A stretch of 34,523 bases of DNA from Vicinamibacteria bacterium (GCA_031364765.1 JANLWV010000382.1:1-34523), one strand, 5' to 3'. Counted from the first letter of the stretch, positions 4,463 through 26,184 are shown. Made by a program: numbers and translations. The notes: generated from the letters alone by a model not told the origin.

Positions 4463-4478
4463 AGCAAGCGGGATGCCA
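4463..4478 (-). promoter_or_regulatory. sigma54 -24/-12 promoter
   Basis: TGGCATCCCGCTTGCT (GG-N10-GC), oriented toward ATG 4450. Confidence 0.8.
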
Positions 4479-6074: not shown

Positions 6075-6090
6075 AGCAACCCACGTGCCA
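6075..6090 (-). promoter_or_regulatory. sigma54 -24/-12 promoter
   Basis: TGGCACGTGGGTTGCT, upstream of the Omp85 gene. Confidence 0.85.
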
Positions 6091-6268: not shown

Positions 6269-6284
6269 TGGCATACCCCTTGCT
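6269..6284 (+). promoter_or_regulatory. sigma54 -24/-12 promoter
   Basis: TGGCATACCCCTTGCT, upstream of the OmpA lipoprotein gene. Confidence 0.82.
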
Positions 6285-8782: not shown

Positions 8783-8798
8783 AGCAACCCCTGTGCCA
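8783..8798 (-). promoter_or_regulatory. sigma54 -24/-12 promoter
   Basis: TGGCACAGGGGTTGCT, upstream of the M48 gene. Confidence 0.85.
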
Positions 8799-8954
8799 TG
8801 GCAGCGAAAACCCAACTGCCACCACCCTCTACGAGCATCCTCGGGCGTGACCGGCTCTGATGGAGGAGAAGCAGAATCTACAATCCGCGCTCCGGTAAGC
8901 AGGCCGAAAGCGGAAGGGGTGTAAGCGGACTCGCCCCCGCTACGGTTCGGACTC

Positions 8955-8970
8955 GGGCATGCCGCTTGCA
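8955..8970 (+). promoter_or_regulatory. sigma54 -24/-12 promoter
   Basis: GGGCATGCCGCTTGCA, upstream of the small protein-HK-HK-bEBP operon. Confidence 0.72.
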
Positions 8971-9253: not shown

Positions 9254-10867
9254 TTGGCTGAGGTTCAGACAGCCGACCGCGCGGGGCGCTGGTTTGATCG
9301 ACTCGTCCCTTACGCCATAGGCCTCCTCGGCATCGTCCTGGCCGCCGGCATCAACGTTCCTGTCGACCCGGAAGCGGACACCAGAACTGCTTTCCTTTTG
9401 CTCCTGGTCGCCGTGATGGCCGCGGCCTGGCACGGTGGACTTCTTCCCGGCCTCTCGACGACGCTGCTCTCCGCCCTGGTCGGCGACTACCTCTTCGCTT
9501 CGAGGGCCTCATTCAGTTCAGGCCACAGGGCCGATGCCGCCGGCATCGGATTCTTCCTCCTTGAAGGCAGTCTCATCAGCATCCTTGGAGGTCAGTTCCG
9601 CGCGGCCCGGCGCAAGGAACAGGCCCTTTCCAAACTCTCCGCGACCCAGGCGGCCATCGCCCTGGACAACGCCCAACTCTATAGGGAGGCGCAAAAGGCG
9701 CGGGCTTCTGCCGAGGCCGCGAGCGGCCGGAAGGACGAGTTCCTGGCGACCTTGTCGCACGAGCTCCGCACCCCGCTGACCGCCATCGTCGGCTGGGCGC
9801 ACCTGCTTCAACGCGGCCAGCTTTCGACCGACGAGACGACTCGAGCGGTGGAGACCATCATCCGAAACGCCACCGCGCAGAGCCAGATCATCGACGAGTT
9901 GCTCGACGTGTCGCGGATCATCACGGGCGACCTTCAGCTCGATCTGAGATCGGTAGACGTCGCCGCGGTGGTCAGGGCGGTCATCGCGACGGTGACGCCG
10001 GCGGCCAGCGCCAAGGGCATTTCGCTCCAACTCATCCAGAACCCGGCAGGGAATTACGTCATGGGCGACCCCGAGCGCCTCGAGCAGGTTTTCTGGAACC
10101 TGTTCTCGAACGCGATCAAGTTCACGCCGAAGGACGGCCGGGTTCGGGCCGTGGTCGAGTCCGTCGGCCCGAACGTCGAGGTGGTCATCGCCGACACCGG
10201 CGCCGGCATCGACGCCGAATTCTTCCCCCGCCTGTTTGACCGCTTCACGCAAGACGATTCGTCGAGCACGCGGCCCGCGCGCGGTCTCGGCCTGGGCCTA
10301 TCTATTGCTCGCCGGCTGGTCGAACTCCACGGTGGCAGCATCACGGCGGAGAGTCCAGGAGTTGGCCTCGGGTCGACGTTCACGGTGCGTTTCCCCGGTT
10401 CCCCCGCGATGTCCCCGCCCCTCGATTCCTTCGCCTCGTCCCCGGCGGGCAGGATGGCGGGACGGGAGGCCGGCCCCGGCCTGAAGGGAGTCCGGGTCCT
10501 GGTCGCCGACGACGACGCGGATGCCCGTCTCCTTATTGAGAAAGTGCTTGAGATCCAGGGCGCGATTGTCAAGACAGTCTCCTCGGCGCGGGAGGCCCTC
10601 GATGTCCTGGGCAGAGAACGCGTCGATGTCCTTTTGAGCGACATTGAGATGCCTGGCACCGATGGGTGTCAGTTGATCAAGGATCTACGCCTGCGGCCAT
10701 CACAGGAAGGAGGGTCCGTCCCCGCCGCGGCCTTGACCTCTTATGCCCGTACCGAGGATCGACTGCGGGCGCTGCGCGCCGGATTCCAGCTACACTTGGC
10801 GAAGCCCGTACAGCCCTCGGAACTCGTCACCGTTGTCGCGCGCCTCGCCGCGCGACGTAACTTGTGA
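9254..10867 (+). CDS. Membrane hybrid histidine kinase (DUF4118-like TM, HisKA, HATPase, REC)
   Basis: Four TM segments, H-box SHELRTPL, NAIKFT, DTGAGI, GLGLGL, and REC motifs ADDD/SDIEMP/KP. Confidence 0.9.
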   Translation: MAEVQTADRAGRWFDRLVPYAIGLLGIVLAAGINVPVDPEADTRTAFLLLLVAVMAAAWHGGLLPGLSTTLLSALVGDYLFASRASFSSGHRADAAGIGFFLLEGSLISILGGQFRAARRKEQALSKLSATQAAIALDNAQLYREAQKARASAEAASGRKDEFLATLSHELRTPLTAIVGWAHLLQRGQLSTDETTRAVETIIRNATAQSQIIDELLDVSRIITGDLQLDLRSVDVAAVVRAVIATVTPAASAKGISLQLIQNPAGNYVMGDPERLEQVFWNLFSNAIKFTPKDGRVRAVVESVGPNVEVVIADTGAGIDAEFFPRLFDRFTQDDSSSTRPARGLGLGLSIARRLVELHGGSITAESPGVGLGSTFTVRFPGSPAMSPPLDSFASSPAGRMAGREAGPGLKGVRVLVADDDADARLLIEKVLEIQGAIVKTVSSAREALDVLGRERVDVLLSDIEMPGTDGCQLIKDLRLRPSQEGGSVPAAALTSYARTEDRLRALRAGFQLHLAKPVQPSELVTVVARLAARRNL

Positions 10868-12420
10868 AAGGCACGCACAATTTGAGACTGCCCGATAGCG
10901 ACCACGAACTGCGAGAGTTCCTGGAGCACGCGACGGTCGGGTTTTTATGGGTCGGCCCCGACGGTCACATCCTCTGGGCGAACCAAGCCGAGCTGGATCT
11001 CGTTGGGTGTTCGGAGGCCGAATGTGTGGGCCGCCACATCGCCGAGTTCCTCACCGAGCCCTTGACCGCCGCCGACATCCTGGGGCGGCTCGCGCGCGGC
11101 GAGAGCGTCCAGTCCCATGAGACCTGCCTTCGAACCAAGGACGGATCCATCAAGAAGGTTCTGCTCGAGGGGAGCGGGCTCTTCCGCGACGGCAAGTTCG
11201 TTCACGGCCGGCTCGTGACCCACGACATCACCGGCCTCATGGAAAGGGAGCAGGCCGCACGGCATCGAGCCGAGGCGACAAGCCAGCTCAAGGACGAGTT
11301 TCTGGCCCTGCTTTCCCACGAACTGCGGACCCCGCTCGGGGCCATCCTGGTCTGGCTCGGCCTCCTGCGGCAGGGAGGCTTCGATGTCGCCGAGCGAGAA
11401 CGCGCCCTCGAGATCATCGAGCGTAGCGCTCGTTCCCTGGAGCGCATCATCGAGGACCTGCTTCACGCCTCCCGCATTGCCGCGGGCGGCCTCATGCTCC
11501 ATCCGCAGCTGGTAGACATCCGAAGCGTGGTTCACGTTGCGGTCGATGCCGTGGCGGGAGACGCGGCCTTGAAGGGCCTGTCTCTCGCGTGGACCCACGG
11601 TGAGACTCCCATCTGGGTAAGGGGGGATCCCGGCCGTCTGCAGCAGGTCGTCTCCAATCTCCTGTCGAATGCCATCAAGTTCACTCCCACCGGAGGCGAC
11701 GTGAGGGTTTCGCTGGACACCATCGATCAGCAGGCCCGGCTCTGGGTCGTCGATAGCGGCGAGGGGATGAGTCCTGCTTTTTTACCGTTCGCTTTTGAGA
11801 GGTTCCGGCAGCAGGACAGCACAAGCACCAGGGCCCACCATGGTCTGGGCCTGGGTCTTTATGTGGTCCGCCATGTCGTGGGGAGCCACGGCGGCTTTGC
11901 CGGCGCCGAGAGTCATGGACCGGGCCGCGGCAGCAAGTTCACGGTGTTGCTTCCGCTCGCGGCCGACCCCCACCATGAAGTTGGCATCCGAGCCCGCGAG
12001 CCGGGCCCGAACGGGAGTCGGCCACCCGATGGTCTCACCGTGTTGTTCGTTGACGACGAGGAGGATGTGCGCGAAGCCCTCAGACTGATCCTTCAGCAGA
12101 ACGGAATGGTCGTCACCACGGCCGCATCGGCTCGCGAAGCGTTCGGTCTTCTCGAACGCCTGCGACCGGATATTCTCCTGAGCGACATCGCCATGCCCGG
12201 CGAAGACGGTCTCTCGCTCATTCGGCGCGTACGTCTGCTGCCGCCCGCCAGCGGCGGCCTCATCCCGGCGGCGGCGCTGTCGGCCTATGCCAGCGCCTCG
12301 GACCGTCGGAACGCGCTCCTGGCCGGCTTTCAGCACCACCTTACGAAGCCGGTCGATCCCGCCCGCCTGCTCGCGGTGATTGCGAGCATGGCCCGAACGA
12401 ATGAGATTCGAAATGAGTAA
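10864..12420 (+). CDS. PAS hybrid histidine kinase
   Basis: PAS (ILWANQAE...TKDGS), SHELRTPL, NAIKFT, G-boxes and REC SDIAMP; GTGA overlap with the upstream gene. Confidence 0.92.
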   Translation: MKGTHNLRLPDSDHELREFLEHATVGFLWVGPDGHILWANQAELDLVGCSEAECVGRHIAEFLTEPLTAADILGRLARGESVQSHETCLRTKDGSIKKVLLEGSGLFRDGKFVHGRLVTHDITGLMEREQAARHRAEATSQLKDEFLALLSHELRTPLGAILVWLGLLRQGGFDVAERERALEIIERSARSLERIIEDLLHASRIAAGGLMLHPQLVDIRSVVHVAVDAVAGDAALKGLSLAWTHGETPIWVRGDPGRLQQVVSNLLSNAIKFTPTGGDVRVSLDTIDQQARLWVVDSGEGMSPAFLPFAFERFRQQDSTSTRAHHGLGLGLYVVRHVVGSHGGFAGAESHGPGRGSKFTVLLPLAADPHHEVGIRAREPGPNGSRPPDGLTVLFVDDEEDVREALRLILQQNGMVVTTAASAREAFGLLERLRPDILLSDIAMPGEDGLSLIRRVRLLPPASGGLIPAAALSAYASASDRRNALLAGFQHHLTKPVDPARLLAVIASMARTNEIRNE

Positions 12421-13753
12421 CGCGCCCCGTGCGTTGATCGTCGACGACGACCCCGGTTTCCTCGCCGGGCTTGCCGAACTTGTCAGGCGTGAAGGCTTTG
12501 CCGTCGTGAGCGCGAGCGACCTGAAGCAGGCCCGCGAGGAGATCGCCGCGAGCCCTCCGGACATTCTGCTGATCGATCTTCATTTGCCGGACGGCAGCGG
12601 GCTCAGCCTTCTCGAAGGCATGGATCAGGCGTCGCGTCCCGAGGTCCTTCTGATCACGGGGAGCGCTTCGGTCGAAACCGCGGTGGACTCGCTTCGCCGA
12701 GGCGTCACCGACTATCTGACCAAGCCGGTGGACTTCGCGCGGGTGAAGATGGCGCTCGGCAACGTCACCCGCGCCCTGGAAATGAGGGGCGAAATCAGCA
12801 CGCTCCGGGGCGAGCTGCGGAGGCTCGGCCGATTCGGGCCGATGATCGGCGCTTCCCCGGCGATGCAGAAGGTTTACGATTTGATCAGCCGGGTGGCCGG
12901 AACCGATGCATGCGTCCTCATCAGCGGCGAAACCGGCACCGGCAAGGAGCTGGTCGCCGAGACCATCCACAGCCTGAGCCGCCGGGGCAAGCAGTCCTTC
13001 CTACCCGTGAACTGCGGCGCCCTCTCGGCGCATTTGATCGAGAGCGAGCTGTTTGGTCACGAGCGTGGAAGCTTCACCGGCGCCGAGCGCATGCACCGGG
13101 GCTATTTCGAACGAGCGAGCGGAGGCACCCTGTTCCTTGATGAAGTCACCGAGGCGATGGAGATTCAGGTTCGACTCCTTCGCGCCCTCGAAACCTCCAC
13201 GATCACGCGGGTCGGCGGAACCGAGCCGATCAAGATCGATGTGCGGATTGTCGCCGCCACCAGCCGTCGTGTCGACGAAGCCGTCGCGGCCGGGAAGTTG
13301 CGGGAGGACCTCTTCTACCGCCTGAATGTCTTCCCGATCCAGCTTCCTCCGCTGCGGGCGCGCGGCGACGATGTCGAACTCCTCGCGGAAAAGGTGCTGA
13401 GCGACCTGAACATCGCGGCGGGGACGGCCAAGCACTTCACCCGGGCGTGCCTTGATCGGTTGCACCGCCATAGCTGGCCCGGCAACGTACGGGAGTTGCA
13501 GAACGTCATCCGTCGCGCCTTCATTCTCGCCGAGGAGGATGTGGGTGTTGACTCCCTGCCCCTGGGCGTCACCGCAGAGGCCTCAGCCACGAGTCTGGTG
13601 ACACGGGTAGGGACGCCGATCGCGGAAATGGAGCGCCGCCTCATCCTGGCGACGCTTGAGCACTGCGATGGCAACAAGAAGGCGGCCGCCGAGGTACTGA
13701 AAATCAGCCTGAAGACCCTTTACAACCGCTTGAACGAATACAAGATCGACTGA
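12413..13753 (+). CDS. sigma54-dependent NtrC/AtoC-family response regulator (REC-AAA+-Fis HTH)
   Basis: REC VDDD/IDLHLPD/KP, Walker A GETGTGKE, ESELFGH..GSFTGA, LFLDE, REDLFYRL, WPGNVREL and HTH ISLKTLYNRL. Confidence 0.95.
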   Translation: MSNAPRALIVDDDPGFLAGLAELVRREGFAVVSASDLKQAREEIAASPPDILLIDLHLPDGSGLSLLEGMDQASRPEVLLITGSASVETAVDSLRRGVTDYLTKPVDFARVKMALGNVTRALEMRGEISTLRGELRRLGRFGPMIGASPAMQKVYDLISRVAGTDACVLISGETGTGKELVAETIHSLSRRGKQSFLPVNCGALSAHLIESELFGHERGSFTGAERMHRGYFERASGGTLFLDEVTEAMEIQVRLLRALETSTITRVGGTEPIKIDVRIVAATSRRVDEAVAAGKLREDLFYRLNVFPIQLPPLRARGDDVELLAEKVLSDLNIAAGTAKHFTRACLDRLHRHSWPGNVRELQNVIRRAFILAEEDVGVDSLPLGVTAEASATSLVTRVGTPIAEMERRLILATLEHCDGNKKAAAEVLKISLKTLYNRLNEYKID

Positions 13754-13886
13754 CCCCCCGAGACCGCGCCGCCCGCCCCCCGTGGAACAATCTACAAAAC
13801 ATCCATGATTCAGGGGGCCGACCGACAGAGCCTACCGGGCGCGAATTGGGGCGGCGAGAGATGGCCTTGAGGCGCGAGACCGGCTG

Positions 13887-14030
13887 ATGGCAGCGCTGCA
13901 CGAGTTTTTGACCACCAACACACCGGAACTCATCAGCCGCACCTAGGCGAAGGCCGCCCAGCGGACGAGCCCGGTGCCGACCGACGCCGAGCTCAAGAAC
14001 GGCGTGCCCTCTTCCTGATTCGGCCGGACC
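13887..14030 (+). pseudogene. Probable relic of a sensor-kinase N-terminus
   Basis: MAALHEFLTTNTPELISRT*AKAAQRTSPVPTDAELKNGVP/LFL, with an in-frame TAG at 13944 and a -1 frameshift near 14009. From memory it resembles the LHEF...GVPLFL N-termini of cytoplasmic HKs. Confidence 0.45.
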
Positions 14031-14047
14031 TAGTTCACGACCCGGCG

Positions 14048-14063
14048 CGGCACACCGTTTGCT
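14048..14063 (+). promoter_or_regulatory. sigma54 -24/-12 promoter of the kai operon
   Basis: CGGCACACCGTTTGCT, about 115 bp upstream of kaiC. Confidence 0.8.
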
Positions 14064-14178
14064 TGAAACGGCCTAATCGAGCAGGACGTGCTTGGATCTG
14101 GTCCGTAAATGACGACCGTGCAGCACAACTAATGTCGGTTGGCGATCTGGGGTCGCGAGAGCGGTTCCCTAGCGAGGA

Positions 14179-15669
14179 GTGCCTGTTAAGAAGAAGACGG
14201 TCGTATCGCCCTTGCTGAAAGCCAGAAGTGGCATCCGAGGCCTTGACGAAATCACAGGCGGAGGCCTGCCCCGAGGTCGCCCCACTCTCGTTTGCGGAAG
14301 TGCTGGCGCTGGTAAGACACTTTTTTCGGTGGAGTTCCTCGTGCGCGGCATCGAGATGGGCGAGCCGGGCGTGTTCATGGCCTTCGAGGAGACGTCCGAG
14401 GAACTGGCGCAGAACGTGGCCTCGCTGGGCTTCGACCTCGCTCACCTCACCGCCCAGAAGAAGCTGGTCGTCGACTTCGTCCGCGTCGAGCGTGCAGAGA
14501 TTGCGGAGACGGGGGAGTACGACCTCGAGGGACTTTTCGTTCGCCTGGGCCACGCCATCGACGCCATTTCCGCCCGGCGGGTGGTGCTCGACTCGATCGA
14601 GACACTGTTCGCTGGTTTGTCGAACACGACACTGCTGCGCGCGGAGCTGCGTCGCCTGTTCCGCTGGCTGAAGGCCCGCAAGGTGACGGCCGTCATCACG
14701 GCCGAGCGCGGGGCGGGAGCCCTCACCCGGCATGGGCTTGAAGAATACGTTTCCGACTGCGTGATCCTGCTCGATCACCGGGTCACGGATCAGGTCTCCA
14801 CGCGAAGACTGCGTGTGGTGAAGTACCGGGGCTCCGCCCATGGCACGAACGAGTATCCCTTCCTGGTCGACGCCCACGGCTTTTCCGTCCTGCCCATCAC
14901 CTCTTTGGGGCTGCAACATCGAGCGTCCGCGGTGCGGGTTTCGAGCGGCATATCGCGGCTCGACACCATGCTGGGAGGCGGCTATTTCCGCGGCAGCACC
15001 GTCCTTTTCTCGGGAACGCCAGGGTCCGGCAAGACCAGTGTGGCCGCCCGCTTCGTGCAGGACGCCTGCGCTCGCGGAGAGCGCTGCCTGTTTCTCGCTT
15101 TCGAGGAATCGCCGGAACAGCTCACCCGCAACATGGGCTCGATCGGCATGGACCTGGGCCGCTGGCGCAGGCAGGGACTTTTGCGACTGGAATCGGCCCG
15201 GCCGGCGGTCTACGGGCTGGAGACGCACCTCGCCTTCATACACAGGACGATCAAGGACTTCAAACCGACGGCCGTCCTCGTGGATCCCATCACAGACTTC
15301 ACCACTGCGGTCGCCGACAACAAGGCCATGCTCACGAGACTTATCGACTTCCTCAAGATGGAAGGCATCACCGCGGTGTTCACGAGCCTCACCACGGCGG
15401 GGGCGTCCGTCGAGCAGTCGGAAGCAGGGGTATCGTCCCTCATCGACACGTGGATCGTGCTGCGGGATCTGGAACGCGAAGGCCGGCGCTACCGCGCTCT
15501 CTCGGTGCTCAAGTCGCGCGGCATGCCCCACTCCCGCGACATCCGGGAATTCCGAATCACGGGTCAAGGTATCGATATCGGCGAGGACCAGCCTGTGCTG
15601 TCCGAACGGCCGGAGGGCAAGATCCGGAAGAGCGCCGGAACTGGCACCCACCAGGAAGCGGCGCGATGA
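14179..15669 (+). CDS. kaiC: Double-domain KaiC ATPase
   Basis: Two RecA-like domains (GSAGAGKT and GTPGSGKT, each with FEE), [23 protein letters not shown] and KSRGMPHS. Confidence 0.95.
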
Positions 15670-16010
15670 CGGTCGAGAGGCGGCCGGGTCGCAAGTCCAC
15701 GCTGCGGCTCGTCGCCGCGAGCCTCGAGGCCGCCGAGCGCTGGGAACTGCGGCTCTACGTGGCCGGACAGACCCCCAGATCCCTCGCCGCCTTTGCGAAC
15801 CTCAAGAAGATCTGCGAGGCCCACCTCCAGGGCAAGTACCGGATCGAAGTGATCGACCTCCTGGTCAAACCGGAGCTCGCCCGAGCGGACCAGATCGTCG
15901 CCATACCCACCCTGATCCGGAAGCTCCCGGAACCGGTGAAGAGGATCATCGGCGACCTGTCAAATAGGGAGCGCACGCTGGTCGGCATGGAGCTCGTTCG
16001 GGAACTCTGA
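15666..16010 (+). CDS. kaiB: KaiB protein 1
   Basis: [12 protein letters not shown]...IEVIDL...QIVAIPTL...IIGDLS; ATGA overlap with kaiC. Confidence 0.95.
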
Positions 16011-16011
16011 G

Positions 16012-16356
16012 ATGGCGCACAAGAAGAATAGATCGCCGCAACGCGGGCGCGGATCGGCGACGGCCGATAAGCAGGCGGAGCGTTACGAGTTGACGCTCTA
16101 CGTGACGGGCGCCACGGCTAGGTCCCTTCGGGCGATCGCCAACATCAAAGCTATCTGCGAGGAATACCTGAAAGGCCACTACCAACTGGAGGTCGTGGAC
16201 ATCTATCGGCGGCCGGAACTGCTGCACCGGGACCAGATTGTGGCCGTGCCGACGCTCGTCAGGAAGCTTCCGCGTCCGGTGCGCCTCCTGGTCGGCGACC
16301 TCTCGAGGGCGGAGCAGGTGCTTTCGGGCCTGGACATCGTCGCCGGTCCTTCCTAG
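16012..16356 (+). CDS. kaiB: KaiB protein 2
   Basis: LTLYVTGATARS...LEVVDIY...QIVAVPTL...LVGDLS. Confidence 0.93.
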   Translation: MAHKKNRSPQRGRGSATADKQAERYELTLYVTGATARSLRAIANIKAICEEYLKGHYQLEVVDIYRRPELLHRDQIVAVPTLVRKLPRPVRLLVGDLSRAEQVLSGLDIVAGPS

Positions 16357-16363
16357 AAGCGAC

Positions 16364-18316
16364 ATGCCCGTCAAAGCAGAGCGGGGCGCACTGGCAGAAG
16401 AGAACGAAGGGCTGCGCGCCCGGCTTCTCGAGTTGGAGGAGACGCTGCGTGCCATCCGCAGCGGCGAAGTGGACGCGCTGGTCGTGGAGACCGCCGGGGA
16501 AAGCCAAGTCTTCACGCTGAAGAGCGCCGACCTGACCTACCGCGTAATGGTGGAAGCGATGCAGAAAGGCGCGGCTACGCTGTCCGAGGACGGACTCGCG
16601 CTCTATTGCAACCCCTTCCTGGCCGCCCTGCTGGACGTGCCCGTGGAAACGGTGGTCGGCTCGCCGCTTTCGGGCTTCCTGGACGAGCAGGCAGCGGCCT
16701 CCCTGAGCGCGCTGCTACGGGCCGCGGAGAACGGGGTCAGCCGGGGCGAGGTCTCGTTCCGGAAGGGCCGGGACTCTGTCCCCACCCAAGTCTCCCTCAC
16801 GCTGCTGCCTCTCGAGGGCGCGCACGTCTTCTGCATGATCGTCACCGACCTGACGGAGCGCAAGCGCGGGGAGGCAGAGCGCGCGCAGCTCGAACGCGAA
16901 CAAATGGCGCGGGCGGCGGCGGAGGAGGCGAACCGAACCGCTCTACACGAGATTGAAAGGCGCAAGGGCGTCGAGGAGTCGCTCCTTCGAGCCGAGAAGG
17001 ACAGGACAAGGCTCCTGGCCCTTGAACGGGCCGCGCGCACCGAGGCGGAGGAGGCCAACCGGTTGAAGGACGAGTTCCTGGCGACCCTGTCCCACGAACT
17101 CCGTACGCCGCTGACCGCCATCGTCGGCTGGGCCCACCTGCTTCACCGCGGCAGGCTCTCGCCCGACGCGACCGTCCGCGCCGTGGACACCATCATCCGG
17201 AACGCCACCGCCCAGAACCAGATCATTGACGAGTTGCTCGACGTGTCGCGGATTATCACCGGCAAATTCCAGATGAGCTTGAGCCCGGTGCGTCTGCACG
17301 ACGTGATCGAATCGGCGGCGGACACCGTGCGGCACGCCGCGCAGGCCAGGGAGGTCGAGCTCGATCTGACCATCGACCCTTCGGCCGGGCCGGTGTTGGG
17401 GGACGCGAGCCGGCTGCAGCAGGTGATCTGGAATCTGCTGTCTAACGCCATCCGGTTTGCGCCCGTGGGGGGACGGGTGGAGGTGCGCGTTTCCGCCGTG
17501 GGCTCGTGGGTCGAGATCTCGGTCACGGACGATGGCGCCGGGATCGATTTCGCGTTTCTGCCCTACGTCTTCGACCGCTTCCGACAGGCGGACTCATCCA
17601 GCACTCGCCCCCACACCGGACTGGGTCTCGGCCTGGCCATCACGCGGTACCTGGTCGAGCTGCATGGCGGATCGGTCGAGGCGCGGAATCGCGAAGGCCG
17701 GTCGGGGGCCGTGTTTATCGTCAGGCTGCCGCGGCCGATCCAGGCCTCGACCGACAGGCGGCCAGCCGAAGGGGATCAGCCGATCCCGCGGGCACAACCG
17801 CCACGGGCTGCACCCTCGCTCGAAGACGTGACCGTGCTCTTGGTCGACGACAGTGAGGATACGCGCGAGGCCGTGGCCATGGCCCTCGCGCACTACGGCG
17901 CTCGTGTGACCGCCGCCTCCTCGGCCCGGCAGGCTTTTGACATCCTCGTGCAAGAGCGACCGCAAGTTCTTGTGGCCGACATCGGCATGCCGGGCGAGGA
18001 CGGTCACACTCTCCTCAAGTGGGTACGCTCGCTCCCGGTCGAGAGAGGGGGCGCGACGCCGGCCATGGCTCTCACGGCGTACGCAAGCGAACAGGATTCT
18101 CTGGCTGCGCTGCGCGCTGGCTTCCAGATGCATCTCTCCAAGCCCGTGACGCCGGCCGAACTGGCCACCGCAGTCGAAAGTCTTGTCGGGGCGGTCCGAA
18201 ACGGGACGGCCTTGCTTCCTGGGCCGTCGCCTACGGCGCAGGAAAGCCCGGCCGGCTCTCCTTCGGTTCCGCGGACCTTTGGAGCGCGGCCGAAAGCGCC
18301 GCGACCAGTTCGATGA
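16364..18316 (+). CDS. Cytoplasmic PAS hybrid histidine kinase of the kai operon
   Basis: Coiled coil + AIRSGEVDALVV, PAS, SHELRTPL, HATPase G-boxes and REC ADIGMP/KP. ATG at 16364. Confidence 0.92.
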   Translation: MPVKAERGALAEENEGLRARLLELEETLRAIRSGEVDALVVETAGESQVFTLKSADLTYRVMVEAMQKGAATLSEDGLALYCNPFLAALLDVPVETVVGSPLSGFLDEQAAASLSALLRAAENGVSRGEVSFRKGRDSVPTQVSLTLLPLEGAHVFCMIVTDLTERKRGEAERAQLEREQMARAAAEEANRTALHEIERRKGVEESLLRAEKDRTRLLALERAARTEAEEANRLKDEFLATLSHELRTPLTAIVGWAHLLHRGRLSPDATVRAVDTIIRNATAQNQIIDELLDVSRIITGKFQMSLSPVRLHDVIESAADTVRHAAQAREVELDLTIDPSAGPVLGDASRLQQVIWNLLSNAIRFAPVGGRVEVRVSAVGSWVEISVTDDGAGIDFAFLPYVFDRFRQADSSSTRPHTGLGLGLAITRYLVELHGGSVEARNREGRSGAVFIVRLPRPIQASTDRRPAEGDQPIPRAQPPRAAPSLEDVTVLLVDDSEDTREAVAMALAHYGARVTAASSARQAFDILVQERPQVLVADIGMPGEDGHTLLKWVRSLPVERGGATPAMALTAYASEQDSLAALRAGFQMHLSKPVTPAELATAVESLVGAVRNGTALLPGPSPTAQESPAGSPSVPRTFGARPKAPRPVR

Positions 18317-18989
18317 GCGGTCCCGCGTCCGCCGGTCCGAAGCGCCCCGGCGCGCGCTTGTTCGAGAAGTCGGCCACCCGCTTCGCGGCCTCGCTCACCA
18401 ATGGGAACCCGTAGATCGCCGCCGATCCGGCCAGGCGATGCGCCATCTCGTCAAGCGAACCCGCGACCCGGTTGTCCCACCCGTTGTCCCGCAGCGAACT
18501 GGCTGCTTTCTCAATGGCCAGGAGCCTTTCGGGAAGATCCGCGGCGTAGTGCGCCCGGAGGGCCGCGAAGTCCTCCGCGCGCGTTTCATTCATGCGTGAG
18601 TTCTGGTGGCCGTCCCACATTCCCTTTATGGTATCGGCGAGCGTATCCGGATCAAAAGGCTTGGCGATGACCCCGAGTGAGCCAAGTTGCCGGTACTCCA
18701 TGATCTCGTGAGGCTGCACCCGGGCGGTCATGAAGATCACCGGCGTCATGGCGGTTGCGGGCATTTGCCGAAAGGCCTCAAAAGCTCCGTGGCCGTCAAG
18801 GCCGGGCATCATCACGTCGAGCAGGATAAGGTCGGGATCGAACGCTTGGGCGGCTTGAAGTGCTTCTGCTGCGGTCCCACAGGCCTGCACCTCGAAATCC
18901 CCCATGTGGGAGAGGAGCAGCGTCGTCACTTCCTGGATGTCGGTGTCGTCCTCCACCAGGAGGATGCGTTTTAGAGATCTCTTCGTCAT
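18231..18989 (-). CDS. REC-Hpt phosphorelay protein
   Basis: REC (VEDD, LDVMMP, FMTA, KPF) plus Hpt motif AHRLAGSAAIYGF. ATG at 18989 after AGGA. Confidence 0.88.
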   Translation of the reverse strand: MTKRSLKRILLVEDDTDIQEVTTLLLSHMGDFEVQACGTAAEALQAAQAFDPDLILLDVMMPGLDGHGAFEAFRQMPATAMTPVIFMTARVQPHEIMEYRQLGSLGVIAKPFDPDTLADTIKGMWDGHQNSRMNETRAEDFAALRAHYAADLPERLLAIEKAASSLRDNGWDNRVAGSLDEMAHRLAGSAAIYGFPLVSEAAKRVADFSNKRAPGRFGPADAGPLIELVAALSAALQRSAEPKESRPGFPAP

Positions 18990-19088
18990 GGCTTTCCTGC
19001 GCCCCGGGGCCCGTGTTCGACGACGTCTTCTGAGGACGAGAACCACGCAAGCACGGGGTGATCACGGGGGCGCCACCTCAACTCCAAA

Positions 19089-19104
19089 AGCAAAACGCGT
19101 GCCC
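19089..19104 (-). promoter_or_regulatory. sigma54 -24/-12 promoter
   Basis: GGGCACGCGTTTTGCT, upstream of REC-Hpt. Confidence 0.78.
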
Positions 19105-19159
19105 TCCTGACCCGGAGCATCCACGACCACCCACCCTTCGATTTCCACGAGTGGGAGCA

Positions 19160-19175
19160 GGGCACGCCTCTTGCA
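19160..19175 (+). promoter_or_regulatory. sigma54 -24/-12 promoter
   Basis: GGGCACGCCTCTTGCA, upstream of the NarL regulator. Confidence 0.78.
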
Positions 19176-19197
19176 CGCTTGTCGAACGAGGTCTTTT

Positions 19198-19830
19198 ATG
19201 GGCATTCGGGTTTTGCTCGCGGACGATCATGCGGTGGTCCGTAGCGGCGTCAAGCTTCTCCTCGAGATGGAGGGCTTCGAGGTTGTGGGCCAGGCCGCCG
19301 ATGGCCTGGAGGCCGTGAGGCTCGCGCGCGAGTTGACCCCGGAAATCGCCGTCCTGGACCGTTCCATGCCGCTCCTGAACGGGGTCGACGCGGCTCGCGA
19401 GATTCTACAAGTCTCCCCGAAAACCCGACTGATCCTTTTGACCGTGGACACGGATGAGGGCCACCACCTTGAGGCCCTGCGTGCGGGCTTTCGGGGATGC
19501 GTGCTCAAGTCCTACGAGGTCCGCGAGCTGATTCAGGCAATTCGAACCGTGGTGAACGGGGGCACGTACCTTCACCCCGCCCTGTCGCGCGTCGTCGTGG
19601 ACGCCTACATCTCCCGAACCGACCTGCAGCCCGACCTTTTGAGTCCTCGCGAGCGTCAGGTTCTCCAACTCCTCGCCGAGGGAAAGAAGACGCGGGAGGT
19701 GGCCGCGCTCCTGGGCCTCAGCACCAAGACCGCCGAGTCCCACCGTACCCGCCTCATGAAGAAACTCGCCATCAAGGAAACCGCTGGACTCGTCCGCTAC
19801 GCCCTCCGCCAGGGCATGACGCAGCTCTGA
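19198..19830 (+). CDS. NarL/LuxR-family response regulator
   Basis: LADDH...LDRSMP REC domain and LuxR HTH LSPRERQVLQLLAEG...KTAESHR. SD GAGG. Confidence 0.93.
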   Translation: MGIRVLLADDHAVVRSGVKLLLEMEGFEVVGQAADGLEAVRLARELTPEIAVLDRSMPLLNGVDAAREILQVSPKTRLILLTVDTDEGHHLEALRAGFRGCVLKSYEVRELIQAIRTVVNGGTYLHPALSRVVVDAYISRTDLQPDLLSPRERQVLQLLAEGKKTREVAALLGLSTKTAESHRTRLMKKLAIKETAGLVRYALRQGMTQL

Positions 19831-19840
19831 GCGGCGGTGC

Positions 19841-19856
19841 TGGCCGCGATCTTGCT
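19841..19856 (+). promoter_or_regulatory. sigma54 -24/-12 promoter
   Basis: TGGCCGCGATCTTGCT, upstream of the oxidoreductase. Confidence 0.7.
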
Positions 19857-19917: not shown

Positions 19918-19977
19918 ATGATCCATCGCACCACACCGGACAACACGCCTCCAGGGGGCCGGACGCTTAACCCATGA
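19918..19977 (+). CDS. Candidate 19-aa leader peptide
   Basis: GAGGAG-5nt-ATG; MIHRTTPDNTPPGGRTLNP. Its TGA overlaps the ATG of the oxidoreductase (ATGA). Confidence 0.35.
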   Translation: MIHRTTPDNTPPGGRTLNP

Positions 19978-20993
19978 CAAGCGTGAATCGACAGATCAGG
20001 CTCGCTTCACGGCCGGTGGGTTTCCCCACGGCGTCTGACTTCCAACTCGCCGAATCGCCGATGCGCTGGCCGGCTCGCGGGCAGCTCCTCGTCCAGACCC
20101 TCTATCTGTCGGTTGATCCCTACATGCGGGGGCGCATGAGCGCCGCCGACTCCTCTGCGCCTCCGCTTTCGATTGGCGAGGTGATGCCCGGCGGAGCGGT
20201 GGGTCGGGTCCTCGAGTCGGCGGATCCGCAGTTCGCGGTGGGGGATGTCGTCCAGGGGATGCTCGGGTGGCAGGACTATTCCGTCGTCAACGGAAGCGAG
20301 CTGCGCGCGATCGACCCCAGTCTCGCCCCGATTCAGACAGCTCTCGGAGTGCTGGGTCTGCCCGGCCTCACCGCCTACTTCGGCCTGATCGACGTCTGTC
20401 ACCCGAAGGCAGGCCAAACTGTCGTGGTGTCCGGAGCAGCCGGCGCGGTTGGAATGCTCGCCGGGCAGATCGCCGTGATCATGGGCTGCCGCGTGGTGGG
20501 AATCGCGGGGTCCGACTCCAAAGTCGAGTTCCTGCAACGCGAGCTCGGCTTCGATGGGGCATTCAACTATAAGACCACGACCGACTACGTCGAAACGCTC
20601 AAGACGCTTTGTCCCGAGGGCATCGACATCTACTTCGACACCGTGGGGGGCGCCATCAGCGATGCGGTCCTGCGGCTCATCAACGTGAAGGCGCGAATCT
20701 CCGTCTGCGGGCAGAGCTCGCAGTACAACCTGGAGCAGCCCGAGCCCGGGCCTCGATGGTTTTCTCAGGTGGTCCTCAAACGGGCCCGGGTGCAGGGCTT
20801 TCTGGTTTCGGACTATCAGGACCGTTTCTCCGAAGGGTTGCAGGGAATGGGGCATTGGCTGAGGCTGGGAAAGCTCAAGCATCCCGAAGATGTCGTCCAC
20901 GGTCTAGAAAATGCTCCTCAAGCTTTCATCGGGATGCTGCATGGGAAAAACCTCGGAAAGCAACTGGTGCAGGTATCGGACTGGAGGGCTTGA
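19974..20993 (+). CDS. NADP-dependent oxidoreductase (CurA/YncB, PTGR-like MDR)
   Basis: LSVDPYMRGRM, GLPGLTAYFGL, VSGAAGAVG, GLENAP.AF and GKNLGK. Confidence 0.93.
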   Translation: MTSVNRQIRLASRPVGFPTASDFQLAESPMRWPARGQLLVQTLYLSVDPYMRGRMSAADSSAPPLSIGEVMPGGAVGRVLESADPQFAVGDVVQGMLGWQDYSVVNGSELRAIDPSLAPIQTALGVLGLPGLTAYFGLIDVCHPKAGQTVVVSGAAGAVGMLAGQIAVIMGCRVVGIAGSDSKVEFLQRELGFDGAFNYKTTTDYVETLKTLCPEGIDIYFDTVGGAISDAVLRLINVKARISVCGQSSQYNLEQPEPGPRWFSQVVLKRARVQGFLVSDYQDRFSEGLQGMGHWLRLGKLKHPEDVVHGLENAPQAFIGMLHGKNLGKQLVQVSDWRA

Positions 20994-21073: not shown

Positions 21074-21089
21074 TGGCCCGCGTCTTGCT
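21074..21089 (+). promoter_or_regulatory. sigma54 -24/-12 promoter
   Basis: TGGCCCGCGTCTTGCT, upstream of ATG 21160. Confidence 0.75.
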
Positions 21090-21159: not shown

Positions 21160-22566
21160 ATGATTCTGAATAGCAAGATGTCATGGTTGTCGGCAGCGGG
21201 GCTCGGCGCTCTGCTCGTGGCCGGGTCCGCCGTTCCAGGCATGAGTCAGGGGGCCTCCGGTCTGTACGGCGCGGGAGACCGGAGGTTGGAAGGGCAGCGT
21301 TTCACGACCATGCGCGCCCTGGCCCACCGGCTTGATGAAGCGGCGCAGCAGGCCGCACGTACTGCGGGCGACACCGCGCAACCGCGCAACGGCCGGATGC
21401 GGCAGCGCTTTTTGTCGGCGGTCAACGACTTCGCCCGCCAGGCGCGTTCGTTTCACGAGCGCCTCGATCAGTACGGAAACTCACCCTGGGATGTGGCCGA
21501 TGAAGTGGCCGCTCTCAATCAGCGTGCTCGCCAGGTCAGCGCTCAGATCCGCGCCGCGAACGCATTTCGTGAAACGTATGAAGACTGGACGCAGGCTGAG
21601 GAAGCGCTCAACCTCATGAACCGTTTGCTGCGCGGGGAGAACGTGTCTATTCCGGCCCAGGGTACTCGTACCTACCAACCTTTCGACGAGCATTACCGGT
21701 ACAGCGATGGGGGGCATCTTGAAGGCTTCGGAGACTCCGCGGTTCCAGCTCCGTACGATCAGCGTGACGCCCGGCCTCGCGATCTGGTGGCCCTCCAGGA
21801 CGATCTCAGGCTTCTGGACGACAGCATGAGCGCCCTCCAAACGAGGGATCCGCGGTATCAGGAATTTCAGCGCCGGGCCGAGGTCATCCGGCGTGACGTC
21901 AGCGTGCTCGCGGACGGGATACGCCAGCGCGGGCAGGCCGGTGGTCAAGGTTACGGAGGTGGGCGGAGGGAGGTCATTGCTCTTCGCCTGAACATTGCGG
22001 CGCTTCGCTCCGACGTGGAGAACACCCAGAGCAGCCGCGTCGGCCAGGGATATGGCGCGTTTCTCATCCCCGCCGGAACTGAAATGCAAGTGATGCTGAA
22101 TCAGGATCTGTCGTCCCGGTCGGCCAATCTGGAGGATCGCATCGAGGCCTCGACGGTAACTGCGTTGCAACTGAATGGCCGCACGGTGATTCCCGCGGGA
22201 GCGACCGTATCGGGTTTCGTGAGCGAAGTCCGCTCGAAAAATCGGGGCCAGCAGGACGACTGGCTGAAGCTGGACTTCAATAGCCTGGCGGTCGAAGGCG
22301 GTCCGCGAACGAACATCCGCTCGCGCGTCGTGTCGGTATCGGCGGAGCGCTCGGGGAACCACACCCTGCGGAACGGGGGCATCGGCGCGCTCCTGGGCGG
22401 CGTGCTCGGCGGGATCATAGACGGCAAGAAGGGCGCCTTGATCGGCGCGGCCGTGGGCGCGGGCGGCGGCATCCTCGCGAGTCAGGGCAAGGACGATGTC
22501 GAGTTGCCCGAAGGAACGCTTATCACGCTTCGGCTCGATGGGCCGATAAACGTCGCGCGGCGGTAG
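21160..22566 (+). CDS. Secreted protein: helical N-terminal domains plus TrbI/VirB10-like domain with glycine zipper
   Basis: Signal peptide; IPAGT...LSS...IPAG.V.G.V, glycine zipper GALLGGVLGG..GKKGALIGAAVGAGGG, and VELPEGT. Confidence 0.7.
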   Translation: MILNSKMSWLSAAGLGALLVAGSAVPGMSQGASGLYGAGDRRLEGQRFTTMRALAHRLDEAAQQAARTAGDTAQPRNGRMRQRFLSAVNDFARQARSFHERLDQYGNSPWDVADEVAALNQRARQVSAQIRAANAFRETYEDWTQAEEALNLMNRLLRGENVSIPAQGTRTYQPFDEHYRYSDGGHLEGFGDSAVPAPYDQRDARPRDLVALQDDLRLLDDSMSALQTRDPRYQEFQRRAEVIRRDVSVLADGIRQRGQAGGQGYGGGRREVIALRLNIAALRSDVENTQSSRVGQGYGAFLIPAGTEMQVMLNQDLSSRSANLEDRIEASTVTALQLNGRTVIPAGATVSGFVSEVRSKNRGQQDDWLKLDFNSLAVEGGPRTNIRSRVVSVSAERSGNHTLRNGGIGALLGGVLGGIIDGKKGALIGAAVGAGGGILASQGKDDVELPEGTLITLRLDGPINVARR

Positions 22567-22638: not shown

Positions 22639-23175
22639 TTACTTCTCGTCGGTCTCGATAGTGGAGGCCACGTGTCGCGCCCCGACGCAGCTGTACGCGG
22701 TCTCGATGGCCACGAGCTTGAGATCCAGACTCGTGGTCTTCCCACTGAGAAGGACCACGCCATTGTCGACCGAATCCACCTTGATTCCGTCGAGGCTCTT
22801 GTTGTTCTTCAGAGCGGTCTCGACGGCTTTCCTGACCTCTTTGTCCGAGGCCTTTACGGCCTTCTTCCGAAGTTCAGGAACGACCTGAACAAGGTTCCGA
22901 ACCCCCGTCACGCCATCGATCGTCCGTACGGTGGCTTCCGCCTTATCCTTCACGGCCTGGCTCTCCACCTTGCCGTGGAGCGTGATCCTTCCCTTCTCCG
23001 TGTCGACTTTCACGTCCATCCGGCCTGCGCCGTCGGTGGTGAGGAGCGAGATCCTGGCCTTTGTCGTGATCCACGTGTCAGACGTTGCCGCGTAGGTCGA
23101 ACAAGCCGCCAGGGTTGACACCAGGACGACACCGCAGAAGGCGAAGCCCAGCTTTCCGTTTGAGTTCATGTGCAT
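22639..23175 (-). CDS. Dual BON-domain (OsmY-like) lipoprotein; start uncertain
   Basis: Lipobox LAAC, SDTWITTK..., ITLHGKV, GVTGVRNL, and a second BON domain GVVLLSG. Confidence 0.85.
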   Translation of the reverse strand: MHMNSNGKLGFAFCGVVLVSTLAACSTYAATSDTWITTKARISLLTTDGAGRMDVKVDTEKGRITLHGKVESQAVKDKAEATVRTIDGVTGVRNLVQVVPELRKKAVKASDKEVRKAVETALKNNKSLDGIKVDSVDNGVVLLSGKTTSLDLKLVAIETAYSCVGARHVASTIETDEK

Positions 23176-23267
23176 GTTTTTCCATGGAGCGCCTCCACAT
23201 CCGCCATTCGGACGCAGCCTTTCGGTGCGGCGCTCATCCGAGACTTCGGGGAGCAACCTCCGTGCCA

Positions 23268-23765: not shown

Positions 23766-23781
23766 AGCAAGAGGCGGGCCA
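23766..23781 (-). promoter_or_regulatory. sigma54 -24/-12 promoter
   Basis: TGGCCCGCCTCTTGCT, upstream of csbD. Confidence 0.78.
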
Positions 23782-26168: not shown

Positions 26169-26184
26169 GCAGACAGGCGGAACC

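Follow-up and report, generated by a model that had tools for sequence, protein, structure and literature searches.

A KaiA-less kaiC-kaiB-kaiB-kinase operon behind a sigma54-type site in a Vicinamibacteria bacterium and its possible place in a two-tier stress-signalling unit

Organisation of the locus

The window, i.e. the whole stretch of 34,523 nucleotides that was analysed, contains kaiC, two kaiB genes and a PAS hybrid kinase (HK3), which form a single, tightly packed predicted operon behind a sigma54-type site (Table 1). As read from the sequence, the junction between kaiC and the first kaiB is an ATGA overlap, the gap between the two kaiB genes is 1 nt and that between the second kaiB and the kinase gene is 7 nt. 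The REC-Hpt gene is convergent with HK3, which its 3' end overlaps by 86 nt, and the NarL-type gene lies beyond it, while two further hybrid kinases (HK1 and HK2) and an NtrC-type activator are encoded upstream of the kai operon. All elements listed in an earlier note on this DNA (promoter, kaiC, two kaiB, PAS hybrid kinase, REC-Hpt, NarL regulator and an HK-HK-bEBP operon) were thus recovered. The open reading frames scanned with Pfam extended over 16238/16364-18316 for HK3, 18231-19046 (-) for REC-Hpt, 19171-19830 for the NarL-type regulator and 12380-13753 for the activator; the start codons were revised, and the ATGs at 16364 (HK3), 18989 (REC-Hpt) and 19198 (NarL) are the most likely ones.

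KaiA (PF07688) was matched neither in the window nor in the whole genome (92.6% complete), although the Synechococcus positive control was; the earlier note had reported its absence from the window only. The genome carries one rpoN and a second, fragmented Kai system which likewise ends in a NarL-type gene. According to the labels of the DNA runs the source habitat is sediment or soil; no RNA run was found to contain the stretch. The window shows no sign of phototrophy.

Table 1. Genes, sigma54-type sites and upstream elements of the window
Feature	Position	Strand	Evidence
Sigma54-like site before 246-aa secreted-looking protein (3710-4450)	4463..4478	-	motif match
Perfect sigma54 site before Omp85-like gene (4722-5990)	6075..6090	-	motif match
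Sigma54-like site before OmpA/glycine-zipper gene (6361-7044)	6269..6284	+	motif match
Perfect sigma54 site before M48 peptidase gene (7136-8695)	8783..8798	-	motif match
Common upstream element GCAGAATCTACAATCCGC, flanked by the divergent M48 promoter (8798, -) and by the weaker sigma54-like site at 8955 (+)	8861..8892		
Sigma54-like site GGGCATGCCGCTTGCA before 52-codon membrane ORF (9070-9228) and HK1-HK2-activator	8955..8970	+	2 mismatches
HK1, DUF4118-HisKA-HATPase-REC hybrid kinase	9254..10867	+	Pfam
HK2, PAS-HisKA-HATPase-REC hybrid kinase	10864..12420	+	Pfam
NtrC-type sigma54 activator, REC, AAA+ with GSFTGA, HTH_8	12413..13753	+	Pfam, sequence
Upstream element AATCTACAAAAC, at a distance of 258 nt from the kaiC site	13790..13801	+	
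Sigma54-type -24/-12 element CGGCACACCGTTTGCT of the kai operon	14048..14063	+	TGGCAC-N5-TTGCW, one mismatch
kaiC, 496 aa, two domains, Rhodobacter type	14179..15669	+	PF06745, E 1.6e-111
kaiB, conserved first-position clade	15666..16010	+	PF07689, 92.4 bits, E 1.5e-26
kaiB, divergent second-position clade	16012..16356	+	PF07689, 87.9 bits, E 3.8e-25
HK3, Kai-linked N-terminal helix, hairpin and PAS, then HisKA-HATPase-REC (hybrid kinase)	16364..18316	+	Pfam
REC-Hpt phosphotransfer protein	18231..18989	-	Pfam; Hpt 27.8 bits, cut-off 24.6
Sigma54-like site GGGCACGCGTTTTGCT facing REC-Hpt	19089..19104	-	motif match; upstream element not found
Sigma54-like site GGGCACGCCTCTTGCA facing NarL-type gene	19160..19175	+	motif match; upstream element not found
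NarL-type response regulator, REC-GerE	19198..19830	+	Pfam
Sigma54-like site before 468-aa glycine-zipper protein (21160-22566)	21074..21089	+	
Perfect sigma54 site before BON-domain gene (22639-23175)	23252..23267	-	
Sigma54-like site before CsbD-like gene (23501-23668)	23766..23781	-	
Sigma54-like site before 73-aa membrane protein (31469-31690)	31723..31738	-	
Sigma54-like site before 91-aa membrane protein (31940-32215), then patatin gene	31909..31924	+	

The Kai proteins and the Kai-linked kinase

PF06745 matches the window KaiC twice, once for each of its two RecA-like domains, and both Walker A motifs (G43/G45/K46 and G282/G284/K285) as well as both EE pairs (E70/E71 and E309/E310) are invariant in a comparison of 77 sequences. 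Residues S419/S420 align with the serine pair S413/S414 of 8DB3 and are candidate phosphosites; in the same comparison S420 is invariant and S419 at least 90% conserved. The nearest solved relative is the Rhodobacter KaiC 8DBA (E 4.9e-168; residues 14-467 of 496 aligned), beyond which core only a tail of 29 residues remains, and the C-terminal extension of about 100 residues, a coiled coil joining two hexamers, was looked for in the window KaiC and is absent. Five type-A orthologues have tails of 21-31 residues, whereas the majority of the family has about 105 (67-129 residues in 73 of 79 family loci), and while the KaiC of locus L011 aligns with 8DBA up to residue 555, the window KaiC does so only up to 463. 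Judged by its sequence, the window KaiC belongs to the Rhodobacter type and naturally lacks the coil. Those sections of the Rhodobacter work that deal with the coiled coil (PMC10076222) tie it to fast autodephosphorylation and describe the engineered coil-less protein as a hexamer with little autodephosphorylation.

Both KaiBs lie well over the domain cut-off of 27 bits and have 8FWJ chain M as their top solved match; they are ancient paralogues, and a literature search on such a pair found no study. In our survey, which lists 80 family loci and is a lower bound, the kaiC-kaiB(-kaiB)-PAS-kinase module recurs in at least 80 loci of many phyla and is therefore in itself of an already known kind. 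Two kaiB reading frames are present in 39 of the 80 listed loci and a single one in 36, so that the pair accounts for about half of the sample, and in 70 the kinase has the same N-terminal module as HK3.

This N-terminus, AIRSGEVDALVV, which the earlier note had singled out, is indeed the most conserved stretch of the Kai-linked kinases, with G34, D37 and A38 invariant in 64 sequences. It is predicted to fold into a helix, a hairpin and a PAS domain (pLDDT 93), and the solved folds nearest to this model are short LOV and FixL PAS domains. A SasA-type kinase was rejected for HK3, as a KaiB-like (thioredoxin-like) N-terminal domain is lacking and Pfam reports PAS only; a CikA-type kinase was likewise rejected, as there is no GAF domain and the receiver keeps its DD pair, acceptor Asp, Thr and Lys.

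Sigma54-type sites and their upstream element

In the site before kaiC, a C replaces the first T of TGGCAC. The site nevertheless has the GG/GC spacing of a sigma54 promoter and lies upstream of a gene in a genome with rpoN, and it is found in six of the eight loci of the order (window, L111, L114, L115, L117 and L120) as opposed to one of 79 loci from other phyla, i.e. it is specific to this lineage. It was not found before kaiC in L113 and L118, nor within 560 nt of kaiC in genome G020. In four other genomes an identical CGGCAC-N5-TTGCT precedes kaiC even though the flanks have diverged. The survey of RpoN motifs before kai operons that had been proposed thus gave a positive answer within the order, but not for other phyla.

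Moreover, the contig (34.5 kb) holds 13 of the 59 sigma54-like sites of the genome, where 0.42 would be expected from the remaining genome, and 12 of these 13 precede a plausible gene start. Genome-wide there is no enrichment (59 sites versus 105 in reversed sequence), so that single sites elsewhere may be due to chance, and we argue for the function of the sites from their clustering and conservation only. On both counts, namely conservation in five of the seven other loci of the order and clustering on the contig, the site at 14048 appears to be more than a chance match, which supports the earlier proposal that kai is under a putative sigma54 promoter.

The site at 8955 is a candidate autoregulatory promoter of the HK1-HK2-activator operon; in L113 and L132 better sites with the upstream element precede HK1. 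The sites facing REC-Hpt and the NarL-type gene are separated from the start codons by 11 to about 90 nt, with a nearly leaderless arrangement in G002 and G004, and could alternatively constitute an inverted-repeat operator. The product of the gene at 31940-32215 falls just below the Pfam cut-off for the transglycosylase-associated family (Transgly_assoc). A Dps-like gene (1105-1929) has no sigma54-like site at up to one mismatch.

Most of the 13 contig sites share a AATCTACAAA-like upstream element. When the window was taken together with 24 related loci, 31 of their 56 sigma54-like sites had this element no more than 300 nt upstream, as opposed to 531 of 10,000 random positions. It precedes kaiC in the window, L111, L115 and L117, although the window distance is unusually large when compared to the 79-113 nt in congeners. 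The activator encoded upstream of kaiC contains PF00072, PF00158 (219.7 bits) and PF02954 together with the GSFTGA loop and is thus of NtrC type; since the genome encodes about ten sigma54 activators, we infer rather than observe that the local one binds the element.

Distribution of the signalling genes

Activator orthologues with at least 77% identity are present in 13 of 40 relatives, eight of which have no KaiB. In the Kai-less loci L127-L130 and L132, HK1-HK2-activator is accompanied by sigma54 sites and by CsbD, BON, Omp85 and M48 homologues, with neither REC-Hpt nor NarL. Full-length REC-Hpt orthologues (68-71% identity), on the other hand, were found only in G002, G004, G015 and G017, all of them congeners with a Kai-linked kinase. 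REC-Hpt thus travels with the Kai kinase while HK1-HK2-activator exists in relatives without Kai, although this co-occurrence rests on close kin and may reflect a single evolutionary event. Of 17 congeners, 14 also have a distinct, stand-alone Hpt, and G025 carries kai on one contig and the activator on another.

With regard to the complete phosphorelay that had been claimed, all parts can be recognised by their motifs, namely the H-box HELRTPL and receiver Asp of the kinase, the Hpt motif AHRLAGSA and receivers with their Asp, whereas the branch from REC-Hpt to the activator is unsupported by co-occurrence. Cross-talk of HK1 and HK3 onto the activator is conceivable, since the two kinases share 54% identity in transmitter and receiver (residues 213-613).

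A two-tier stress-signalling unit

Starting from the observed gene content, operon packing, conservation of promoter and element, co-occurrence and KaiC catalytic and phosphosite residues, we consider it somewhat more probable than the contrary (roughly 0.55) that the region serves as a stress-signalling unit of two tiers, leading from the stress kinases, activator and sigma54 to the Kai timer and from there via HK3 and REC-Hpt to the NarL-type regulator. For this we infer the protein-protein contacts, the phosphotransfer steps, the pairing of activator and element and the stress signal. On this reading, the kai timer would resemble a second-stage switch turned on by stress instead of a clock for day and night.

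In the first tier, which is conserved across the order independently of Kai, HK1 with its membrane DUF4118 input and HK2 with its PAS input would control the receiver of the activator, which would bind the AATCTACAAA-like element and open the sigma54 promoters. Targets would be a general-stress and envelope set (CsbD, BON, glycine-zipper/OmpA, Omp85-like, M48 protease and small membrane proteins), but also kaiC-kaiB-kaiB-HK3 and probably the activator's own operon. The second tier, the Kai module, would be made only when the first is on. If it behaves like the Rhodobacter protein engineered to lack the coil, KaiC would be a hexamer which needs no KaiA for autophosphorylation and hardly dephosphorylates on its own, so that its state would be set by KaiB binding and the ATP/ADP ratio. 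The N-terminal helix-hairpin-PAS module of HK3 might read this state, and phosphate would pass from HK3 to its own receiver, to REC-Hpt and finally to the NarL-type regulator.

The earlier note had closed these parts into a loop, in which KaiBC signals through HK3 and REC-Hpt to both the NarL-type regulator and the sigma54 activator, which in turn drives kai. This we regard as unlikely, even though all parts lie within 11 kb and, in four module-bearing congeners, still adjoin HK1-HK2-activator in permuted gene order, with the two operons being divergent neighbours in G020. In addition, one Hpt could serve three kinases given the close paralogy of HK1 and HK3, and kai, REC-Hpt and NarL each have a sigma54-like site. 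The cascade nevertheless fits better, because REC-Hpt tracks the Kai kinase only, HK1-HK2-activator stands without REC-Hpt in Kai-less relatives and the stand-alone Hpt can complete its relay, leaving the feedback via Hpt to the activator unsupported.

It appears still less probable that the operon encodes a light- or day-entrained hourglass as in Rhodobacter or Rhodopseudomonas, with incidental sigma54 sites and a kinase that is a redox/PAS input sensor instead of an output. KaiC and the two KaiBs resemble the Rhodobacter proteins most closely, and the histidine kinase of the Rhodobacter kaiBC operon is proposed as a redox input in the part of that work concerned with it (PMC5520375); however, an acidobacterium of sediment or soil whose window lacks signs of phototrophy, a promoter and element that are conserved and common to stress genes, and a KaiC without the coiled coil on which fast autodephosphorylation depends in the reported Rhodobacter results (PMC10076222) all speak against it. 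That the sites arose by chance in GC-rich DNA and that kai is transcribed from a conventional sigma70 promoter would agree with the genome-wide counts and the C at the first position of the kaiC site, but is very improbable in view of the clustering on one contig, the fitting orientation and distance to gene starts, the identical site in four other genomes and the co-occurring upstream element.

Extended beyond this locus, the cascade raises the possibility, which we put forward tentatively, that in this order of Acidobacteriota the general stress response is run by sigma54 through hybrid kinases, an NtrC-type activator and a AATCTACAAA-like enhancer, with CsbD, BON, glycine-zipper and envelope genes as targets, and that some lineages have added a Kai unit of coil-less KaiC and paired KaiBs, which under stress would time an interval or the energy state and then release a delayed NarL programme. 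If so, sigma54 would take the place of an RpoS-, SigB- or EcfG-type sigma factor, and a Kai hourglass would gauge the duration of stress instead of the time of day.

Comparison with known systems

KaiBC systems outside cyanobacteria are common and poorly understood. The locus offers testable handles on both ends of such a system, the input being a conserved sigma54 promoter and enhancer common to recognisable stress genes and the output a co-inherited REC-Hpt/NarL branch after the kinase.

The KaiBC hourglass of Rhodobacter (Cereibacter) sphaeroides (Pitsawong et al. 2023, PMC10076222; 8DBA, 8DB3, 8FWJ) is likewise KaiA-less, its KaiC and KaiB are the nearest solved relatives and its serine pair is kept in the window KaiC. 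There too, as far as the operon is described in PMC5520375, a kinase gene follows kaiB. Unlike in Rhodobacter, the window combines a KaiC tail of 29 residues (versus about 105) with two KaiB paralogues, a sigma54 promoter and a stress-gene island. The coil-less KaiC is a natural experiment, since the engineered Rhodobacter equivalent is described as losing autodephosphorylation (PMC10076222).

In Pseudomonas, KaiC adjoins a (hybrid) kinase, to which in P. putida it binds via the N-terminal PAS, the neighbourhoods contain the kinase and single-domain regulators, and the role is given as stress resistance and not as circadian in the relevant part of that report (10.1101/2022.01.26.477890). The window, by comparison, has two KaiBs, a REC-Hpt protein and a DNA-binding NarL-type regulator.

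In the KaiABC-SasA/CikA-RpaA system of Synechococcus elongatus, the state of KaiC is likewise read by a histidine kinase and passed on to a DNA-binding regulator, and KaiB is of the same family. The window, however, has no KaiA, its PAS-module kinase carries neither the KaiB-like domain of SasA nor the GAF of CikA and is a hybrid that needs an Hpt, and its output regulator is of NarL type, whereas RpaA is of OmpR type.

Finally, CsbD, BON/OsmY-like, glycine-zipper lipoprotein and Dps-like genes, and with a score slightly below threshold a Transgly_assoc-like one, are of the kind found in the RpoS regulon of E. coli, the SigB regulon of Bacillus and the EcfG regulon of Alphaproteobacteria. Unlike those, the promoters of the window are of sigma54 type, which need an ATP-dependent activator, here presumably fed by hybrid kinases, and they suggest that a stress regulon based on sigma54 exists in a soil and sediment lineage which is abundant and seldom cultured.

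A Kai operon under putative sigma54 control

Our analysis favours a cascade in which the histidine kinases HK1 and HK2 and the adjoining NtrC-type activator would switch on the Kai genes through sigma54, and in which Kai would signal through the hybrid kinase HK3 and the REC-Hpt protein to the NarL-type regulator. The junction spacings (an ATGA overlap between kaiC and kaiB1, 1 nt between kaiB1 and kaiB2, 7 nt between kaiB2 and HK3) indicate that kaiC, both kaiB genes and HK3 form a single translationally coupled operon. Among the sequencing runs listed, no RNA run contains 13754-17000. The G+C content of the window is 62–68%. The 3' ends of HK3 and the convergent REC-Hpt gene share 86 nt (18231-18316), and the final ~35 residues of HK3 are of low complexity and show no conservation among relatives. 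A small hydrophobic protein is encoded by a 52-codon reading frame that stands after a weak sigma54-like site (8955) and ahead of HK1, and with which the kinase-activator operon may begin.

Genes and sites of the locus and of the second Kai system; "yes" marks a site with at most one mismatch to the sigma54 pattern
Feature	Coordinates	Strand	Basis or remark	Sigma54-like site before gene
52-codon ORF	9070-9228	+
HK1: DUF4118-HisKA-HATPase-REC	9254-10867	+	Pfam, junction reading
HK2: PAS-HisKA-HATPase-REC	10864-12420	+	Pfam, junction reading
Activator: REC, sigma54 AAA+, HTH_8	12413-13753	+	Pfam, junction reading
Short reading frame LMAALHEFLTTNTPELISRT*AKAAQRTSPVPTDAELKNGVP	13884-14018	+	in-frame stop
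Sigma54 site CGGCACACCGTTTGCT	14048-14063		one mismatch
KaiC, 496 aa, two KaiC domains	14179-15669	+	Pfam, junction reading	yes
KaiB (kaiB1), 114 aa	15666-16010	+	Pfam, junction reading
Second KaiB (kaiB2), 114 aa	16012-16356	+	Pfam, junction reading
HK3: coil, PAS, HisKA, HATPase, REC	16364-18316	+	Pfam, junction reading
REC-Hpt	18231-18989	-	Pfam, junction reading	yes
REC-GerE (NarL type)	19198-19830	+	Pfam, junction reading	yes
Sigma54-like site TGGCCGCGATCTTGCT	19841-19856	+	two mismatches
Zinc-type oxidoreductase	19974-20993
246-aa secreted-looking protein				yes
Omp85-like protein				yes
OmpA/glycine-zipper lipoprotein				yes
M48 peptidase				yes
468-aa glycine-zipper protein				yes
BON protein				yes
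CsbD-like protein			53 bits, cut-off 40	yes
73-aa membrane protein				yes
91-aa membrane protein			transglycosylase-associated family, 24.4 bits, under Pfam cut-off of 25.3 bits	yes
Ferritin/Dps-like, YqjK-like, PLD-like, metallophosphoesterase genes	1105-1929, 2-682, 24813-28097
Second-system kaiC	C292:15005-16393
Second-system HK3-like N-terminus (PAS-module gene), then NarL-type gene	C439:195-1981

Every item that the earlier note had observed at the locus is borne out by Pfam, the junctions, the sigma54 site and genome searches, including the absence of kaiA, which extends to the whole 92.6%-complete genome (3.84-Mb assembly, 551 contigs): no KaiA match was obtained there, and a Synechococcus control was positive. 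The idea that REC-Hpt is a disguised KaiA, composed of a receiver and a helical bundle, was ruled out, as the Hpt model scores over its cut-off, the His motif is present and the genome has no KaiA match. The genome contains one rpoN copy, about ten sigma54 activators and no KaiB other than the two in the window. A second two-domain KaiC, 61% identical to that of the window, lies at the end of contig C292 and belongs to a second Kai system that is broken at contig ends and whose kaiB genes are absent from the assembly; its gene order over C292 and C439 agrees with that of L118, a locus from another genome.

The sigma54-like site is largely confined to one taxonomic order

A one-genome-per-species scan gave at least 80 loci with KaiC 60–68% identical to that of the window, and those listed span Acidobacteriota, Verrucomicrobiota, Nitrospirota, Planctomycetota, Bacteroidota, Pseudomonadota and others. 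Among the 80 loci listed, tblastn and ORF calling found two kaiB genes after kaiC in at least 39 (a lower bound, since the ORF caller overlooked the first kaiB in L052 and L066 and any kaiB in L049), one in 36 and none in 5, these last being mostly contig ends in a set where some kaiBs were overlooked; 70 of the 80 have a kinase whose first 170–190 residues match HK3. The kaiC-kaiB(-kaiB)-kinase module is thus of a known and widespread kind; according to passages in PMC5520375, the Rhodobacter operon includes a kinase, and KaiB2/KaiC2-type pairs exist beyond cyanobacteria.

The earlier note had proposed a survey of RpoN motifs before such operons; the motif recurs in the taxonomic order to which the window belongs but hardly elsewhere. 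When the 400 nt before kaiC are searched for TGGCAC-N5-TTGCW, with one mismatch allowed but none in GG and GC, only 1 of the 79 wider-family loci listed has a site, so that a general trait of kaiC operons is ruled out. Within the taxonomic order of the window (41 genomes searched), however, 6 of 8 loci, window included, have one. Among the orthologous type A loci (KaiC 74–86% identical to that of the window), the window, L111 (G002), L117 (G004), L115 (G015) and L114 (G025) carry the site and L113 (G020) does not; of the second type, B (KaiC about 60%), L120 (G021) has a perfect site and L118 (G001) none. The sites of the congeners read CGGCACAT-N3-TTGCT despite diverged flanks. In L113 (G020:C43:95000-114999), from a relative of another family, kaiCBB-HK3 and a divergent HK1-HK2-activator are surrounded by 10 sigma54-like sites within 20 kb; none lies directly before kaiC, upstream of which homologues of the 73-aa membrane protein and of CsbD are found on the opposite strand.

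A sigma54 island with a common upstream element

Of the 59 matches to the sigma54 pattern in the genome, 13 fall on the 34.5-kb contig, against 0.42 per 34.5 kb predicted from the remaining sequence. As the reversed genome sequence gives 105 matches versus 59 real ones, there is no genome-wide enrichment, and therefore only clustering, orientation and conservation of the sites carry weight. A plausible start codon follows 12 of the 13 sites at a distance of 12–132 nt. The thirteenth (4526, +) was discounted as a promoter because the reading frame that it faces overlaps the oppositely oriented Omp85-like gene; it stands back to back with a minus-strand site (4478) within 4463-4541, with one common copy of the upstream element at 4584, and of these two sites the minus-strand one alone points at a convincing gene. 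The ferritin/Dps-like, YqjK-like, PLD-like and metallophosphoesterase genes also lie in the island and have no sigma54-like site at one mismatch or fewer. A further, two-mismatch site is found just past the NarL stop codon, 118 nt before the oxidoreductase gene; in locus L112 the oxidoreductase lies between NarL and HK1.

The upstream element has the core [AT]T[CG]TACA, which is found in AATCTACAAA or TTTCTACA context in 7 site-bearing intergenic regions. It occurs within 300 nt upstream of 31 of 56 sigma54-like sites in the window and 24 related loci, compared with 531 of 10,000 random positions, usually at a distance of 45–135 nt. We read this element as a putative enhancer of one activator; of the about ten such activators in the genome, the NtrC-type protein encoded within the island is the most natural candidate. 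Before kaiC the distance is 258 nt in the window versus 79–113 nt in L111, L115 and L117. Between the element and the kaiC promoter lies a short reading frame with an in-frame stop, which we take to resemble the N-terminal helical domain of an RsbR-type sensor and which may be a gene remnant that displaced the enhancer to 258 nt. The activator operon is probably autoregulated, because the weaker site at 8955 (two mismatches), 79 nt from an element at 8876, faces the small membrane ORF and HK1, and because HK1 in L113 and L132 is preceded by better sites with the element.

Two proposed units and the probable direction of signalling

Activator orthologues of at least 77% identity were found in 13 of 40 relatives, 8 of the 13 without a KaiB over the cut-off, these relatives being close kin so that co-occurrence counts are not independent events. 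In the Kai-less loci L127-L130 and L132, HK1-HK2-activator lies amid sigma54 sites and CsbD, BON, Omp85-like, glycine-zipper or M48 homologues, and neither REC-Hpt nor NarL was seen in them. A PLD homologue (88%) flanks the Kai-less island of L127. Only G002, G004, G015 and G017, the four congeners with an HK3 orthologue, yielded full-length REC-Hpt orthologues (68–71% identity), which adjoin HK3 in 4 of 4 cases; the remaining 12 congeners yielded none. Of 17 congeners, 14 have the stand-alone Hpt of contig C166, irrespective of Kai.

On account of these counts we favour a division into two units: Kai with HK3, REC-Hpt and NarL, and the activator with HK1 and HK2, the latter unit driving, in this reading, expression of the former. 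The earlier note had suggested a closed feedback loop, with REC-Hpt acting back on the sigma54 activator that drives kai. This fits the comparative data less well, as REC-Hpt tracks HK3 and the activator unit occurs without Kai; the cascade appears to fit them better.

The HK3 N-terminus

In an alignment of 64 HK3-like N-termini G34, D37 and A38 are invariant, all within AIRSGEVDALVV, the stretch singled out in the earlier note, and past about residue 170 the kinase type varies among the loci listed. In the model (pLDDT 93), a helix (2-33) and a hairpin (38-51) precede the PAS core, which extends to residue 162 and is followed by a long exit helix. Among solved structures, short LOV and FixL PAS domains come closest to it. 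Being an ordinary PAS fold in the model, a LOV, SasA-like or pseudo-receiver module was ruled out; by eye, the YCN motif of HK3 also differs from the LOV motif NCRFLQ. As modelled, the N-terminus is neither SasA-like nor CikA-like. A contact between KaiC and the PAS domain of HK3 is plausible by analogy, since a Pseudomonas preprint (10.1101/2022.01.26.477890) reports that KaiC binds the neighbouring kinase through an N-terminal PAS. A complex prediction of KaiC, both KaiBs and HK3(1-215), with an alignment for each, scored 0.01 against a mark of 0.32, which speaks neither for nor against such a contact.

Comparison with known Kai systems

Among the papers searched, none treats kaiC, kaiB and sigma-54 together. 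By titles and abstracts, kaiC with RpoN, and kaiB and kaiC with Acidobacteria, co-occur only incidentally; the records retrieved on RpoN, CsbD, general stress and BON contained no comparable sigma54 stress regulon, and those on Acidobacteria, sigma-54, stress and enhancer-binding protein nothing specific. The finding is real, and what is new is the putative sigma54 and enhancer control of a Kai module within a stress-gene island, the REC-Hpt/NarL branch co-inherited with Kai, and the coil-less KaiC.

Both KaiBs have the Rhodobacter KaiB of 8FWJ as their best solved match. A quick tree built from 116 KaiBs places all 40 first-position and 32 single KaiBs in one clade (support 98) and all 40 second-position KaiBs outside it; this split by position points to an old duplication with fixed gene order that is not peculiar to the window.

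The best solved relative of KaiC is that of Rhodobacter sphaeroides (8DBA, E 4.9e-168), to which only residues 14-467 align. Conservation extends to the two Walker A motifs, the two Glu pairs and the serine pair S419/S420, which aligns with that of 8DB3. Beyond the core KaiC has 29 residues in the window and 21–31 in five type A orthologues; the tail is 67–129 residues long in 73 of the 79 family loci listed, and KaiC of L011 aligns to 8DBA through residue 555, coiled coil included. Short-tailed KaiCs occur both with two KaiBs (L088) and with one (L019), and a link between coiled-coil loss and two KaiBs was discarded for want of a pattern. According to passages in PMC10076222, a Rhodobacter KaiC construct stopped at residue 490 is a hexamer, with nearly normal nucleotide exchange and autophosphorylation and little autodephosphorylation; as far as that account goes, the KaiC of the window is the natural counterpart of this construct.
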